Source of the DNA: Candidatus Saccharimonadota bacterium
Lineage (GTDB): Bacteria > Patescibacteriota > Saccharimonadia > Saccharimonadales > Saccharimonadaceae
Direction: 5' to 3'
Assembly (NCBI GenBank): GCA_020428315.1
Contig: JAGQNA010000003.1
Span: 155-64,154, forward strand
Length of the DNA stretch: 64,000 nt
Below are positions 23,929 through 60,505 of this stretch, piece after piece; the stretch's first letter is position 1, and every line of letters begins with the position of its first letter. The position numbers and the translations under genes were made by a program. A model generated the notes under the pieces. That model was not told where the DNA came from. It was given only the letters and a program-made list of their open reading frames with translations, and did not search any database.

Positions 23929-23950
23929 TACTTAGACTATTGAAACAAAA

Positions 23951-23979
23951 TTGACAAACCTACAACAATTTGCTATAGG
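23951..23979 (+). promoter_or_regulatory. Promoter TTGACA-17-TGcTATAGG upstream of a decayed small gene
   Basis: TTGACA 23951-23956; TG 23971-23972; TATAGG 23974-23979. Confidence 0.5.
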
Positions 23980-24006
23980 TAGATACTAATTTTAAATAAA
24001 CAAATC

Positions 24007-24353
24007 ATGTCAGAAGTAGTACTCCAAACTAGAACCGAACATTCCCGCAGTATCGAGAATGGCGATAGGTTTCGTGCATTAGAGTTTTAAAAAAAGTTGG
24101 GCTGTTAATAACAGTTAGTGATTTAGAGACCTGCCATGGCCGTCTAGGCCACAATACTGATGCTACCAAGTGGGAGGTTGACCCTTCATTTGCTAATGGC
24201 GGTAACGATAATGTGTATTATCGACCGATTTTATATACAAGTGATAGAGATACGGCTCAGGACTTTGCCAAGACTCGTGGTGGCTCTAGGATTAGACAAC
24301 TCTTCAGTAAAATATTTGATGATCGAGTAGCCAATTACACGCCCAACTGTTAA
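24007..24353 (+). pseudogene. Frameshifted small gene (~115 codons if repaired), product unknown
   Basis: ATG 24007 opens a 27-codon ORF ending at TAA 24088-24090 inside a T4A7 run; a 94-codon open frame with no start codon continues in the -1 frame to TAA 24351-24353; adding one T to the T4 run joins them. Confidence 0.4.
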
Positions 24354-24381
24354 GGGGAGCGGACGTTACCGTAACCCCCTT
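24352..24381 (+). terminator. Hairpin after the decayed small gene
   Basis: AAGGGG..GCGG-acgtta-CCGT..CCCCTT followed by CGTTT; T-run weak. Confidence 0.4.
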
Positions 24382-24437
24382 CGTTTAATGGTAGTTTTGG
24401 TAAGTGTACAGACTTTAATGGTAGGAAACTTGAACCC

Positions 24438-24466
24438 TTGACAAATCAAATGGATTAATGTAATAT
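24438..24466 (+). promoter_or_regulatory. Promoter TTGACA-17-TAATAT for ORF 24477
   Basis: TTGACA 24438-24443; TAATAT 24461-24466; ATG 10 nt downstream. Confidence 0.5.
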
Positions 24467-24476
24467 ATAACTATAT

Positions 24477-42236: not shown

Positions 42237-42265
42237 TTGACTATATTTCAGTAATAATGTATAAT
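42237..42265 (+). promoter_or_regulatory. Promoter TTGACT-17-TATAAT driving a long structured leader
   Basis: TTGACT 42237-42242, exactly 17 nt, TATAAT 42260-42265; next credible start codon is ~275 nt downstream. Confidence 0.6.
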
Positions 42266-42470
42266 GTAAACCATCCAACGTCTAGTGTCACAAGTAATTA
42301 TAAAGCACTATAGATCGTTGGTGCGTAGTTAGCATCCTGCTTGAGCGAATTATTTGCTCGTGGTGATACGACTATTTAACAAAATGTTCTCAGCTACTTT
42401 TTTCTTCGATGACCTTTGCCAGTAGTATTTATAGTGCTAACTAGGCTATATACAGACGTGTATGGTACTG

Positions 42471-42498
42471 GTTAGCACTGTAAGTGCTAACGTTTTCT
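42471..42498 (+). terminator. Intrinsic terminator/attenuator hairpin inside the leader of ORF 42532
   Basis: GTTAGCACT-gta-AGTGCTAAC (8-9 bp) followed by GTTTTCT. Confidence 0.55.
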
Positions 42499-42531
42499 AG
42501 GAAATCCCTAGGAAGCCACCTTTGAAAGGAG

Positions 42532-43146
42532 GTGGTGGCTATGAACGGCCACAAACAGAAAACCCTCAGGATGGTCACTATGGCAATCCTGGGATTCTTT
42601 GCTTGGAGCGGCATTATAGTTGCCGCTCCGGCACAGGCGGACAGTGTCGGATGCTATCCAACACTGTCCGATCCGTGTTCTGACTGGACGCGAGTCCAGT
42701 CGGAGCAGCTCGTAGTCGATTACAACAACAGTAATCGGCAGCTGACAGTAATCATCCAGCGTCACTATGAGGCTGGATATTATCTCATCGGGGAAGGTGC
42801 TGCCTATCCCCATGTAGGTTTCTGGTATCTTGGCCAGGAGCCCCTTAGGTATCAGTGGTTCTGCCGGTCGGCAGAACCACTGTACCTAAAATATGAGTTC
42901 AATCGCTCCCTCGAATGGGATCCATTCGTTTGGGGGATTGTCGAAGCTAGGTGCAGTGATGGCACTACACCTAGCGTGATGACGGGTAAAACTACTCGTC
43001 ATCAAGCTTTGCAATTTTGTGCCGAAAGGCACAAAATTGCAAAGCGCAAGAAGGGGAGGGCCTTGAAAAAGGCCCTCCGCAACGGAACTACCAAGTTCCG
43101 TTGTGTAAAGCCTAAACGGGCGCATAAGCGTCCGTTTGGTAGCTGA
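42532..43146 (+). CDS. Hypothetical secreted protein, 6 Cys, polybasic C-terminal tail (likely start ATG 42541)
   Basis: SD AAGGAGG; signal peptide ...VAAPAQA; tail KIAKRKKGRALKKALRNGTTKFRCVKPKRAHKRPFGS; G+C about 53% by hand count of 42541-42740. Confidence 0.6.
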   Translation: MVAMNGHKQKTLRMVTMAILGFFAWSGIIVAAPAQADSVGCYPTLSDPCSDWTRVQSEQLVVDYNNSNRQLTVIIQRHYEAGYYLIGEGAAYPHVGFWYLGQEPLRYQWFCRSAEPLYLKYEFNRSLEWDPFVWGIVEARCSDGTTPSVMTGKTTRHQALQFCAERHKIAKRKKGRALKKALRNGTTKFRCVKPKRAHKRPFGS

Positions 43147-43151
43147 GACAA

Positions 43152-43200
43152 GCCTGACTCGCCAACCCAAAAAAGGTTGGCGAGTCAGGCAAACTCATTT
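43152..43200 (+). terminator. Strong intrinsic terminator
   Basis: Perfect 16-bp stem GCCTGACTCGCCAACC-caaaaaa-GGTTGGCGAGTCAGGC, then AAACTCATTTT. Confidence 0.85.
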
Positions 43201-43226
43201 TGATTTCTGTTACTAAATACAGGTTA

Positions 43227-43235
43227 TGCTATTAT
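43227..43235 (+). promoter_or_regulatory. Extended -10 TGcTATTAT, 7 nt upstream of ATG 43243
   Basis: taTGCTATTATtgtatgtATG; no SD. Confidence 0.5.
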
Positions 43236-43242
43236 TGTATGT

Positions 43243-45234
43243 ATGATCAATAGCTTAATTCGAAGATCAATTTTGTTGTTCATTTTAATGGCTAGTGTTT
43301 TGTCCATTTTTTTTGTATTAATATTTGCCTCTCATAAAACGTATGCTAGTAGCCGTATAGTAACAATAAACCCTACTGTTGGTGATTCTGCTACCGCAGT
43401 GCATCTGATGAACATAATGTGCAACAGTTATGCAGTTGGTTTTGGCGCGTACATAACCGATGCTTCTATTAATAGTTCCGGTGTTGCTAGTTACAATGTT
43501 AATATTGTGTATAAGAAGTGTAATAACACAGCAACAAGAGCCTATGCATTAGTAGGCAACAGTGGACTTTGTCCATTGGTAGGCAGATATGGCGGTGGCA
43601 ATACTGGACAAGCATTTGATTGTGTAAAATATATTGGCGCCCCAAAGTATTCGACTGGCTCTGGCCTTGATTGTGAAAGTCCACCTGAATTAAATGATAG
43701 ATGCGTGTATCAGCCTGTATTCAATTCGATTGCCATAGCATATGATCAGCCGGTCGGCGTGGGTACTCAGTATTCGTTAACAAGATCAATACTGTATGGT
43801 ATTCCTGCTAGTCTGTGGCAACAACCACAAGGCTCTATAAATATTGGTGCTGAGACCCAAATGTGTCAATTCTATAAGGTTAAGCTTTCTAGAGACGCAG
43901 ATTGGAAAGATGGTGCTGGAATTTATGGCTGTCAATCTATATATTTATCTGTCTCATGGCGTGAGCGCTCCTACAATCTCACCCCAAATATCGCCATAGG
44001 TATAGATAGGTTTACTGGGCAAGCTAATATTCCAATAGGGGCAGATATATCTCAAGGATCAGCGGATGACCCGGTAGGTGAAAATCATAATTGGTTTGTT
44101 ACCAAAGCAGTATTTAAGGCTCCTATCAACAGAGGTGCTGTGGCATTGTCAGATGACGAGCCGTGTACATATTTTAATAAAAAATCGTCAAATGCGTTAC
44201 GCCATGGGGTGTGCGAGGAAGCTATTGGGGGCGGAAAAATATACCCAGGAAGCGGCAACTATTTCGGCACAAGACCTACAGGTAATATCCCTCTTGGTTA
44301 TTATATTTGCTATATGACATCAGTACAAAATCCAACCAGCCGATCGGATGATGATAGTAAATGGCGTCATAGTGACATAAAATGTGCTCAATCTGTTGCT
44401 ATTCCTAAGCTCCAAGTTCATGGTGGCGATTTACGAGTGGCTAGTGATAGTAATTGTACAGCCAAGAAGGGCTTTATTAACACTAGTATGTCGCGGATTG
44501 ACGGGCGACACTATGGTAGCTGGTCAGAGTTTGCTAGCTTTAGTCAGTGTAGTGATAGCAACTTTACTACGGGGGCAGAGCTAGAATCTGGTCAGGCTAG
44601 TGTTACGCCTATTGATCCCTACCATGGCTTAACGTTTGCAAATGGTGGTGGCTCGTACGGTAGCTACAGTACCGATACAAATATTGTACGTGGTGTCCAG
44701 CCTATTACAGATTGTCCAGCAAGTGTACCGTCAGACCATAGGTTTAGTAGCTTTGGAGCTTTTAAACTTAGTGTTGATGAAGGAAATGTAGCTGGTAGCT
44801 ACTGCGTGGGGAATAGTAGTAGCAATTTAAATGTAGATAGCGATGTTAAGTTAACGGGTAAACCCAGTGGGATAAAACAAATACCTCAAGTAATATTGAT
44901 TGGTAAGGACATAAACATTCATGAAGGAGTGTCAAGGCTTGACGCCTGGCTACTGGCTAGTGGAGATCTAAATACTTGTACCAATAGTACCAACAACCGC
45001 AATGCGACCCTAAAAAGTACTGTGTGCAACAACCAGCTAGTTATTAACGGCCCAGTATATACCAATAAACTGTATCCCGACAGAACTTTTGGTTCTCGTG
45101 ATGAAAATGATAAGGCTAAAGCCGGTGAGATATTTAACCTACCAGCGTCTACCAGTATATGGCTGTATAACCAGTCAAAGACTAGTGGTGCAATAGACAC
45201 GGTTAGCCTAAAAGAATTGCCACCAAGATATTAG
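43243..45234 (+). CDS. Large secreted/anchored Cys-rich protein of unknown function, immediately upstream of the T4P locus
   Basis: 663 aa; N-terminal hydrophobic SILLFILMASVLSIFFVLIFA; many Cys spread through the ectodomain; no pilin signal. Confidence 0.65.
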   Translation: MINSLIRRSILLFILMASVLSIFFVLIFASHKTYASSRIVTINPTVGDSATAVHLMNIMCNSYAVGFGAYITDASINSSGVASYNVNIVYKKCNNTATRAYALVGNSGLCPLVGRYGGGNTGQAFDCVKYIGAPKYSTGSGLDCESPPELNDRCVYQPVFNSIAIAYDQPVGVGTQYSLTRSILYGIPASLWQQPQGSINIGAETQMCQFYKVKLSRDADWKDGAGIYGCQSIYLSVSWRERSYNLTPNIAIGIDRFTGQANIPIGADISQGSADDPVGENHNWFVTKAVFKAPINRGAVALSDDEPCTYFNKKSSNALRHGVCEEAIGGGKIYPGSGNYFGTRPTGNIPLGYYICYMTSVQNPTSRSDDDSKWRHSDIKCAQSVAIPKLQVHGGDLRVASDSNCTAKKGFINTSMSRIDGRHYGSWSEFASFSQCSDSNFTTGAELESGQASVTPIDPYHGLTFANGGGSYGSYSTDTNIVRGVQPITDCPASVPSDHRFSSFGAFKLSVDEGNVAGSYCVGNSSSNLNVDSDVKLTGKPSGIKQIPQVILIGKDINIHEGVSRLDAWLLASGDLNTCTNSTNNRNATLKSTVCNNQLVINGPVYTNKLYPDRTFGSRDENDKAKAGEIFNLPASTSIWLYNQSKTSGAIDTVSLKELPPRY

Positions 45235-59141: not shown

Positions 59142-59765
59142 CTATTCTCGGAAGATACTTTTTAATCTCGGCATGACAATGTCTGCAATAATCCGATGTC
59201 CCTCATTATTTGGGTGTAGGCTATCGGGCAAGAGTTCAGTTTTTGCCTCCGCCTCTGTAAAGGGAGTGAGAATATCAATAAACTCCAATGCGTTGTCATG
59301 GCAAAAAACCTCCAAGACCTGATTGAACATTCGTATTCTATCGTTTGTATAGCCAGTATTGCTCCATGATACAGGGTTTGAGCGTTCTTCTACGCATGGC
59401 GTAAGTCCGACAAAAACAATTTTGTTAGAGTACCTACTAGCCATTACGAGTAGTTTTTCAAGATTGCTTTTGTATTCTTCTGGTTCAGAGAAATTAACGC
59501 CCGATTTTGTACGTGAGTCATTTAACCCTACGGCAAAAATAAACCCCAACTCCTCGTCCTGACATCGGGCCTTTGTTTCTGCCTCAAAACGCTCCACGAT
59601 ATCCCGGCTACTATTTCCAGAAATACTCAAATTAAAGATTGTCGGCAAATCGTAGCCAGTTTTAATAGTTTCTTTGTCGTACACTGTGCGAATACGCTGT
59701 ATCCAGCCGCCGTTAGTATCCCAAAAGCCCTGTGTTATGCTGTCGCCAAAAATTAGTACTCTCAT
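59142..59765 (-). CDS. SGNH/GDSL-family hydrolase
   Basis: Block I IFGDSITQG, block III GLNDS, block V DSLHPN. Confidence 0.8.
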   Translation of the reverse strand: MRVLIFGDSITQGFWDTNGGWIQRIRTVYDKETIKTGYDLPTIFNLSISGNSSRDIVERFEAETKARCQDEELGFIFAVGLNDSRTKSGVNFSEPEEYKSNLEKLLVMASRYSNKIVFVGLTPCVEERSNPVSWSNTGYTNDRIRMFNQVLEVFCHDNALEFIDILTPFTEAEAKTELLPDSLHPNNEGHRIIADIVMPRLKSIFRE

Positions 59766-60505
59766 GATTTGTATCTTGGGTCGTGTATTGTTGTATAAAT
59801 AATCGTTTGTATCCAGCGTTCGATAATATCATACCATTTGGCTGGATTGGGCATAAGTTTTGGCGAATGTTCAAGACCTCTTATGACTATATAGTTACCA
59901 TGTGCTGCAGCGTGATAGTACGACTGCAGTATATTGGCTTCAATAACCGTATCAGCTTCATGCTCGATGATGTAACTTGTACCGTCAAAGGCTTTTAGTG
60001 CCTCCGTTGCTTTATTTGAATATGTCATATCAATATTTTGTCTGTAGAGGTCTTTAGCCTCGTCATCTTTACTTTCTATTGTTTCCGAATAAGGATAGTC
60101 AAACTCCTCGTCTTTGTAGTTCGCTGCCGCACGCAAGATAACAATCTGAGGTTCTCGAACTCCTGCGAGGAGTGCTGCCATGTAGCCGCCAAAACTACCG
60201 CCAATGATAATGATTTTGTCTAATCCTCGACTCACAAGCTGGTCATACACGGTGCATACTTCCTCAAATTGTTGCTTGCGTGTCGCTTGTTCTAGCGGGA
60301 CAGGATGATTGCCATGTCCAGCATAGTTGAGAATGGCAAATGGAACATTGGAAGCAGTGCTCATACGTTCACAACCCTCATTATGGCCCTCGATTGTACT
60401 GGTAAAGCCCTGTAGCCATAATACAACCCAGCCGTTATGTGCGTTATCTGGAGTGAATAGTCGCCACGGTGTACCGTCATCAAGAGTGTAATTGTCAATT
60501 TTCAT
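59762..60505 (-). CDS. Alpha/beta-fold hydrolase
   Basis: Nucleophile elbow GGSFGG; 247 aa; overlaps downstream SGNH gene by 4 nt. Confidence 0.7.
   Translation of the reverse strand: MKIDNYTLDDGTPWRLFTPDNAHNGWVVLWLQGFTSTIEGHNEGCERMSTASNVPFAILNYAGHGNHPVPLEQATRKQQFEEVCTVYDQLVSRGLDKIIIIGGSFGGYMAALLAGVREPQIVILRAAANYKDEEFDYPYSETIESKDDEAKDLYRQNIDMTYSNKATEALKAFDGTSYIIEHEADTVIEANILQSYYHAAAHGNYIVIRGLEHSPKLMPNPAKWYDIIERWIQTIIYTTIHDPRYKS

Follow-up and report, generated by a model that had tools for sequence, protein, structure and literature searches.

The leader described here, a stretch of about 270 nucleotides (nt) ahead of the gene for a secreted protein of 201 amino acids (aa; p201), is a strongly folded untranslated region in a genome of Saccharibacteria (TM7), and it shares features with several described kinds of leader. 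The window, that is the whole stretch of DNA that was analysed, comprises 64,000 nt of Candidatus Saccharimonadota bacterium (assembly GCA_020428315.1, contig JAGQNA010000003.1, positions 155 to 64,154, forward strand); coordinates refer to it unless a homologous locus (L001, L002 and so on) is named.

Like the 5' stabiliser hairpins of E. coli ompA and of B. subtilis aprE and ermC, this leader is long, opens with a hairpin that lies about 2 nt or less from its predicted 5' end, and precedes a strongly promoted gene for an exported protein; it differs in that the stem (P1) is almost invariant beyond generic need and has a second conserved domain beside it. With the type I toxin messenger RNAs (mRNAs) tisB, hok/mok and AapA1, whose primary transcripts are translationally inert, it shares a long structured 5' untranslated region (UTR), a Shine-Dalgarno sequence (SD) held in a local hairpin, and a conserved single-stranded upstream region that could serve as a standby site, with or without an upstream open reading frame (ORF). 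Unlike those toxins, p201 is a Sec-secreted protein of 200 aa and not a small membrane toxin, and there is no sequence homology. Translational riboswitches and RNA thermometers (fourU, ROSE) likewise combine a conserved 5' domain, variable platforms and a U-rich anti-SD that pairs with GGAGG through G-U pairs; here, however, no switching helix was found and the SD hairpin (P5) is fairly stable (-12.6 kcal/mol, GNRA loop), and the family is narrowly distributed and matches nothing in Rfam. The initial annotation of this DNA had read the locus as a transcription attenuator. With the leader-peptide attenuators (E. coli trp, pheA, pheST, his) it has in common a promoter-proximal leader, segments able to pair as 2:3 or 3:4, a U-run, and a short ORF with three Phe codons. 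It departs from them in that the ORF, its regulatory codons and its stop are not conserved in the family, the segments are absent from most members, the 2:3 pairing is a helix of 31 base pairs (bp), the gene is unrelated to amino-acid metabolism, and again no Rfam family matches.

The leader belongs to a small, previously undescribed family of structured leaders that hide the ribosome-binding site, and is a member of no described family. On the best-supported reading it would work like the SD-sequestered, stabilised leaders of ompA-type or tisB-type mRNAs. On balance it is probably a new 5' UTR, specific to this lineage and acting in cis, which makes the mRNA more stable and holds translation in a locked state until a factor intervenes. 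The general claim of a regulatory leader has held up: the region is a highly structured, non-coding leader behind a promoter and is very probably regulatory.

Fold and conservation of the leader

Positions 42270-42545 were folded, as the initial annotation had proposed. The + strand gave -99.5 kcal/mol, against -67.6 +/- 5.0 for 200 shuffles (z -6.35, no shuffle as good), and the opposite strand -73.4 kcal/mol (z -3.78), an asymmetry that is expected if G-U pairs matter, i.e. if the structure belongs to the RNA of the + strand. The leader contains six consecutive hairpins, P1 to P6, more than had been described before:

42237..42265, + strand: sigma-70-type promoter, -35 TTGACT, 17-nt spacer, -10 TATAAT (11/12 match)
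42275..42321, + strand: P1, 5'-terminal hairpin, CCAA..UCUAGUG / CACUAUAGA..UUGG with a 16-nt A-rich loop (-13.0 kcal/mol)
42325..42375, + strand: P2, rod-like irregular hairpin (about -13.5 kcal/mol), containing segment 1 (42328-34) of the initial annotation
42375..42391, + strand: single-stranded motif UUUAACAAnUUGUUCUC (about 17 nt, predicted unpaired), which holds the mini-ORF start codon
42423..42489, + strand: P3, 31-bp hairpin, an extended 2:3 pairing with segments 2 and 3 as its core (-41.5 kcal/mol)
42471..42498, + strand: alternative 3:4 hairpin (42471-42491) plus GUUUUCU, terminator-like (-10.4 kcal/mol)
42492..42516, + strand: P4 hairpin, GUUUUCUAGG / CCUAGGAAGC (-12.2 kcal/mol), whose 5' arm is the U-tract of the putative terminator
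42517..42534, + strand: P5, SD-sequestering hairpin (-12.6 kcal/mol in its 9-bp form, 42515-42536)
42535..42552, + strand: P6, GUGGCU / GGCCAC (42535-40 with 42547-52), with the AUG (42541-43) in its loop (-9.4 kcal/mol)

P2 is built of P2a (GUAGUU:GACUAU), P2b (UCCUGC:GUGGUG, one mismatch) and P2c (GAGCGAA:UUUGCUC), and in P5 the anti-SD CACCUUU (42517-23) and the SD GGAGGUG (42528-34) enclose a GAAA loop. The near-consensus promoter, the interrupted hairpin at 42275-42321 (here P1) and the hairpin GCCACC...GGTGGC over the SD, ahead of the ATG at 42541, were all read correctly in the initial annotation. Hairpin P1 and the SD hairpin, which it held to be ancillary, are the parts that are conserved in relatives.

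The promoter is the joint best among the matches in 9 kb scanned. Its -10 box is invariant and its 17-nt spacing kept in most homologues, with a variable spacer sequence and a variable -35 box (TTGACT, TTGACA, TTGCAC, TTGCAT or TTGCGG); in the single type C leader (L047) the -10 is extended (TGGTATAAT) and the -35 only weak. P1 starts 9 nt past the -10 box. Because TATAAT stands 6-8 nt ahead of the ATG in the leaderless genes of this window, the transcription start site (TSS) is predicted at about 42272-42274, 1-3 nt 5' of P1.

Relatives were sought through the encoded protein. Word-indexed searches of 5.8 billion proteins found only 7 members of the p201 family and an exhaustive profile search 15 cluster representatives; look-ups of their contigs and one metagenome pattern scan yielded 14 leaders (the window and 13 homologues), which fall into four types:

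Type A: window, L001, L002, L003b (= L004), L053
Type B1: L003a, L009, L010
Type B2: L006, L013, L051, L052, L054
Type C: L047

All 13 homologous leaders precede paralogues of a family of small secreted, basic-tailed proteins from a narrow Saccharibacteria clade. Across 5.7 kb of flanking genes L001 and L002 share about 91% identity with the window, so the similarity of their leaders proves little; the comparison between types is the informative one. Between types the 5' domain is 54-95% identical, the proteins 19-33%, and the 3' half of the leader about 40-60%, which is roughly the value for unrelated sequences.

The conserved 5' domain, of about 120 nt, comprises P1, P2 and the single-stranded UUUAACAAnUUGUUCUC of about 17 nt. 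A MAFFT alignment of nine sequences, made independently of the structure model, had 95.4% of its 5'-domain cells paired as predicted, against 29-52% with slid partners; in a 13-sequence alignment fitted to the model the values were 98.8% and 28-55%, and five pairs were changed on both sides, a number reached by 3 of 500 shuffles. Within P1 98.1% of cells are paired, and the arms, nearly invariant in 12 homologues, show compensatory changes at one base pair (AU, GC or GU) and in L054, which has UAGCG:CGCUA for UAGUG:CACUA; in type C P1 is replaced by a shorter, different 5'-terminal hairpin. P2 has 99.3% of cells paired (slid controls 28-55%) and three pairs changed on both sides. Its P2a is GUAGUU:GACUAU in type A, with the compensated GUAGCU:AGCUAU in L053, and becomes GACGA:UCGUC in type B1, GGC(C)GAU:AUCGCC in B2 and GGCU:GGCC in C, and all 13 homologues, folded singly, form the same P2a-P2b-P2c rod. 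The most conserved primary sequence is UUUAACAAnUUGUUCUC, near-invariant in 14/14 leaders including type C. Over the full type A leader 95.8% of cells are paired with eight compensatory pairs, which none of 500 shuffles reached. These comparisons of sequence show that purifying selection acts on the RNA of the 5' domain. In L003 the two tandem leaders, one of type A and one of type B, are only 70% identical, which points to selection on the RNA and not to homogenisation.

The 3' half of the leader is variable and always ends in P5, which pairs the SD, and P6, which brackets the AUG; the window adds P3 and P4. An SD-pairing hairpin with an adjacent AUG hairpin was present in all 13 distinct loci, in at least six different anti-SD/SD sequence solutions, and helices equivalent to P6 in the other types are GCGGCC:GGUCGC, GCGACC:GGUCGC, GACCAU:AUGGUC and GCCAU:AUGGC. 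The probability that the SD is unpaired was 0.04 in the local fold of the window and 0.01-0.5 over the 13 loci. The SD is paired in the predicted ensemble, and this is kept in homologues despite sequence change. For the start region of the window (-70..+30) the fold energy is -42.3 kcal/mol; 53 other genes have -16.6 +/- 6.2 (minimum -31.1), which makes this region the most structured among the 54.

The leader motif occurs nowhere else in the window; in the collections searched it stands only ahead of the p201 gene family and never alone. A pattern scan for P1 gave no match in GTDB species genomes and none in IMG/VR, and four in metagenome contigs, of which three are true copies (L006-L008) and one (L005) a chance match. 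At 29 other Saccharibacteria pilM loci neither a leader copy (nhmmer, covariance model R1) nor a p201 homologue was found, and BLAST of the leader against a phage collection gave no match. In Rfam 15 the leader region gave only mir-2253 at E<=10 (E 1.5), the whole window one tRNA only at the gathering threshold, and six homologous loci no match in their leaders, so that the Rfam comparison suggested at the outset turned up no family.

How the leader may act and rival explanations

In the mechanism considered probable above, the conserved promoter would start a transcript that carries P1 within about 2 nt of its 5' end, where P1 could protect it from 5'-end-dependent decay and so, as modelled, probably stabilises the mRNA. 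P5 and P6 would keep the strong SD unavailable, giving a stable mRNA that is poorly translated by default. The platform of P1, P2 and single strand is probably the recognition site for a trans-acting factor (a protein, an RNA or possibly a small ligand), which would decide on the opening of the start region. The 2:3/3:4 arrangement with its short U-run would be a recent, type-specific addition and not the core of the device, and may contribute partial premature termination or an RNase III site.

Connections encoded in cis were sought between the platform and the lock. The 3' arm of P1 has a downstream mimic at 42427-42438 of the window (3/300 shuffles as good), with significant counterparts in L002 and L006/L013 and none in L009 and L010. 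This alternative pairing was not adopted, being absent from L009/L010 and leaving the U-to-C change of segment 2 uncompensated in P1; in L001/L002 that change is compensated in segment 3. The 5' arm of P1 has no significant downstream partner, and a helix of AACAAGUUGUU with the 3' strand of P2c, of 11 bp in type B, was rejected as it is not conserved in types A or C. The outcome is a locked start region and a conserved 5' platform with no cis-encoded connection, which suggests a trans-acting partner or a constitutive set-point.

Several points weigh against this explanation. No upstream or other intramolecular segment pairs with the anti-SD beyond chance (z about 0). The reading also names no trigger, and the lock may be constitutive. 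Transcription start, 5' end and 3' ends of the transcript are all predictions from sequence. The almost invariant P1 stems would also fit a sequence-specific DNA or protein site. With about eight clearly distinct sequences the family is small, and it is narrowly distributed, so its covariation statistics are modest; recombination could help conservation, the cassette being exchanged between strains.

A bolder and rather unlikely version holds that the domain of P1, P2 and single strand is a new class of sensor RNA, responding to a ligand or to a host-contact-dependent factor, that unlocks translation of polymorphic secreted-protein cassettes, which Saccharibacteria strains exchange along with the N-terminal portion of the adjacent pilus-operon protein.

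It is unlikely that a short ORF starting at an (A/U)UG within UUUAACAAnUUGUUCUC is translated and that its ribosome remodels the hairpins, by translational coupling or standby loading. The candidate in the window is the mini-ORF of the initial annotation, which is present in the sequence with its three consecutive Phe codons:

42384..42425, + strand: mini-ORF MFSATFFFDDLCQ, 13 codons, judged to be no conserved leader peptide

A potential start codon lies at the same place in 13/14 leaders, the first codons ((M/L)-F/L-S) are conserved, the upstream sequence is A/U-rich and unstructured in a genome that often initiates without an SD, and in L047, L003a and L053 the stop falls 15-26 nt before the main ATG, near enough to melt the anti-SD. 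Against this, the window, L002, L006, L013, L051, L052 and L054 have the stop 84-115 nt 5' of the ATG, neither length nor sequence of the peptide is conserved, the conservation of the first codons is matched by that of the non-coding bases 5' of the putative start, and L003b has UUU at the start position. AUG occurs in the window only, with UUG in 12 homologues; the ORF ranges from 4 to 41 codons, with its stop 15-115 nt 5' of the main ATG, and that of L001 extends through all four segments. FFF is found in 3/14 leaders (the longest Phe run in the other 11 is 1-2 codons), and the Phe codons sit in a U/C-rich linker that changes in length by non-multiples of three. Coupling through the upstream ORF was rejected as a general mechanism on account of the varying stop positions.

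That the leader is a metabolite- or ion-binding riboswitch, with P1, P2 and the single strand as aptamer and the variable 3' half as expression platform, appears quite improbable. The 5' domain is indeed aptamer-like: it is conserved, its stems covary, and the variable platforms behind it all sequester the SD at their end. However, no alternative helix connects it or any other upstream segment to the anti-SD, and the alternative partners of the P1 arms are inconsistent, being significant in some types only. The internal loops and junctions of P2 are variable and the invariant positions lie in stems and single strand, a pattern more in line with a protein or RNA partner; the element is narrowly distributed, with a single gene family and no Rfam class.

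An independent trans-acting small RNA (sRNA) of about 220 nt (42272 to about 42498), ended by P3 or by 3:4 and the U-run, with the p201 mRNA as its read-through product, is very doubtful. This proposal has in its favour the strong promoter, the strong structure, a 5' domain far more conserved than the gene, and a terminator-like site, which is formed by the last two of the four segments of the initial annotation:

42328-34, + strand: segment 1, GTTAGCA, a 7-nt partial copy
42433-41, + strand: segment 2, AGTGCTAAC, exact 9-mer
42471-79, + strand: segment 3, GTTAGCACT, exact 9-mer, complement of segment 2
42483-91, + strand: segment 4, AGTGCTAAC, exact 9-mer

The segments alternate as had been reported, and GTTAGCACT or its complement has three exact occurrences in 64 kb, all within the leader. 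The 3:4 hairpin (9 bp, four of them GC pairs, then GUUUUCU) heads the list of terminator-like sites and is mutually exclusive with both P3, which also takes up 7 nt of segment 4 and the mini-ORF stop codon, and P4. Hairpin and U-run of the proposed 3:4 terminator are present; the hairpin has -10.4 kcal/mol against -41.5 for P3, and the U-tract also belongs to P4. Among the window, L001 and L002, the alternative pairings of segment 3 are kept with compensatory changes, 2:3 (P3) with 97% of cells paired and four pairs changed on both sides and 3:4 with 92.6% and one compensatory pair; the 1:2 pairing has 83% of cells paired, shows no covariation and is weakened in L001. P4 has three pairs changed on both sides among four type A leaders. 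The four segments occur only in the window, L001 and L002: segments 2 and 3 are precisely deleted between direct repeats in L003b/L004, L053 has an unrelated long hairpin without a U-run at the position of P3, and types B and C have other structures in their place. Hairpin and U-run together are thus found in the window, L001 and L002, weakly in L003b, and not in L053 or types B and C. Against an sRNA stand also the constant fusion of the element to the p201 gene family, its sole truncated copy (L008) being a deletion remnant, and the near lack of enrichment of canonical terminators in this genome, where hairpin-plus-U sites are barely commoner across the window than in shuffles. P3 or 3:4 may still contribute, in a minor way and in this type only, to termination or to RNase III processing.

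Constraint at the DNA level, with the P1 inverted repeat and an AACAAnTTGTT palindrome as operators or the 5' domain as a homology arm for cassette exchange, is very improbable. The P1 arms and the palindrome are nearly invariant, and the cassette is swapped between nearly identical strains with its left boundary near the promoter or leader; yet the spacing of the P1 arms varies by 1-2 bp, G-U pairs are many and the strands asymmetric, P1 (in L054) and P2 have compensatory changes, and the tandem leaders of L003 have not been homogenised.

Hardly tenable is the Phe-sensing attenuator put forward in the initial annotation, in which a ribosome on MFSATFFFDDLCQ would mask segment 2 and favour the 3:4 terminator and a stall at FFF would allow the 2:3 antiterminator: the window alone shows the whole layout (ORF, three Phe codons, 1:2, 2:3, 3:4 and U-run) and 2:3 and 3:4 are kept in L001 and L002, but the leader-peptide model is rejected because the start, length, stop and Phe codons of the ORF and the segments themselves are not conserved, the stop has no fixed position from which a terminating ribosome would cover segment 2, and the downstream gene, no amino-acid pathway enzyme, is unrelated to phenylalanine.

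Locus and cassette exchange

The unit behind the leader is monocistronic:

42541..43146, + strand: regulated gene for the 201-aa secreted protein p201, with a Sec signal peptide, a beta-rich core and a Lys/Arg-rich C-terminal tail
43152..43190, + strand: perfect 15-bp palindromic hairpin with an A6 loop and no U-tract, which closes the unit

The palindrome is kept in L001, L002 and L003 (a self-match in both orientations). Profile searches of p201 gave no Pfam, NCBIfam or PDB match, in keeping with the unknown function given to the gene earlier, and its AlphaFold2 model was poor (predicted local distance difference test score 54.5) and unfit for a fold search. The centre of the gene (42781-42978) is unalignable with L001 and L002, and the surrounding DNA is 79-93% identical; by sequence, the protein has a hypervariable core between a conserved signal peptide and basic tail.

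Upstream lie ychF (- strand), surface-protein genes, one with WxL-interacting and LysM domains, and a gene for 129 aa; leader and p201 gene follow, then a 663-aa gene and pilMNO...pilB. The pilM gene is 2.7 kb 3' of the leader gene, and its product is 59-67% identical to those of most retrieved metagenome-assembled genomes of Saccharibacteria / Saccharimonadales and 46-54% to the most distant. The type IV pilus is the apparatus by which Saccharibacteria attach to hosts.

Many genes of the window, pilM included, lack an SD and show TATAAT 6-8 nt ahead of the ATG:

4087, 8920, 9619, 13787, 45282, 53634 and 59762-60505(-): examples of the leaderless type, TATAAT 6-8 nt upstream of ATG

An SD-like motif was found in 20/55 window genes only, and these patterns of sequence imply that leaderless mRNAs are widespread in this genome. 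Against this mostly leaderless background a leader of 270 nt with AAAGGAGGUG, an SD that is perfect and yet hidden, stands out as exceptional. Elsewhere in the window, about 550 nt (23929-24476) have neither an ORF of at least 60 aa nor an Rfam match.

The cassette is exchanged as a block. Upstream of 42391 L053 and the window share 96.6% identity, and from 43968 on 99.8%; between these points, window 42392-43967 is replaced in L053 (1190-3323) by unrelated sequence that encodes a 22%-identical paralogue. The swapped block comprises the 3' half of the leader, the whole p201 coding sequence, the terminator and the first 725 nt or so of the 663-aa gene, and L051 and L011 show the same pattern of replacement. 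On both flanks of the block the strains compared are 97-99.8% identical. It looks like a polymorphic module adjoining the type IV pilus operon. The cassette is also located after hisS, beside ychF, after nusG and beside an IS200/RAYT-like Y1 transposase.

L003 (1050-3091) has two family members in tandem; the first has a type B1 leader and the second a type A leader, each behind a promoter of its own, and the spacer before the second promoter contains a relic of the 129-aa upstream gene, namely of its 3' end. In L008 (1075-2109) the promoter, P1 and P2 up to GTGGCGGA are joined to the part of the GH16 gene that in L003 comes after the two tandem cassettes, both of which are lost. In several genomes, though not in the window, a gene for a 212-aa Y1 (IS200/RAYT-like) transposase lies directly 5' of the cassette promoter, between inverted copies of the hairpin TTTCCAAGnACGGTnCTTGGAAA; elsewhere this place is taken by solo or related hairpins:

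L010 876-1604, L054 591-1323, L055 77-809, L056 87-819, L009 467-489 and L047 2260-2295: Y1 transposase or hairpin sites

The element was set aside, since it is a separate unit with its own flanking hairpins, unrelated to P1.

Meaning for Saccharibacteria

To our knowledge, gene regulation in Patescibacteria and the candidate phyla radiation (CPR) is essentially undescribed. A leader with a hidden SD in a mostly leaderless genome is a concrete, testable candidate for post-transcriptional control in this group, and a recent perspective considers translational regulation likely to be key to the life cycle of these bacteria (PMC11665869). A hypervariable secreted-protein cassette beside the type IV pilus operon also has its 5' edge at this leader. 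If the reading of the leader's 5' domain as a sensor were true, an epibiotic CPR bacterium would make the expression of a variable host-interaction module depend on a signal. Once its trigger was identified, the leader would supply Saccharibacteria genetics with a natural regulatory part and open a way into a polymorphic locus that possibly concerns host specificity.

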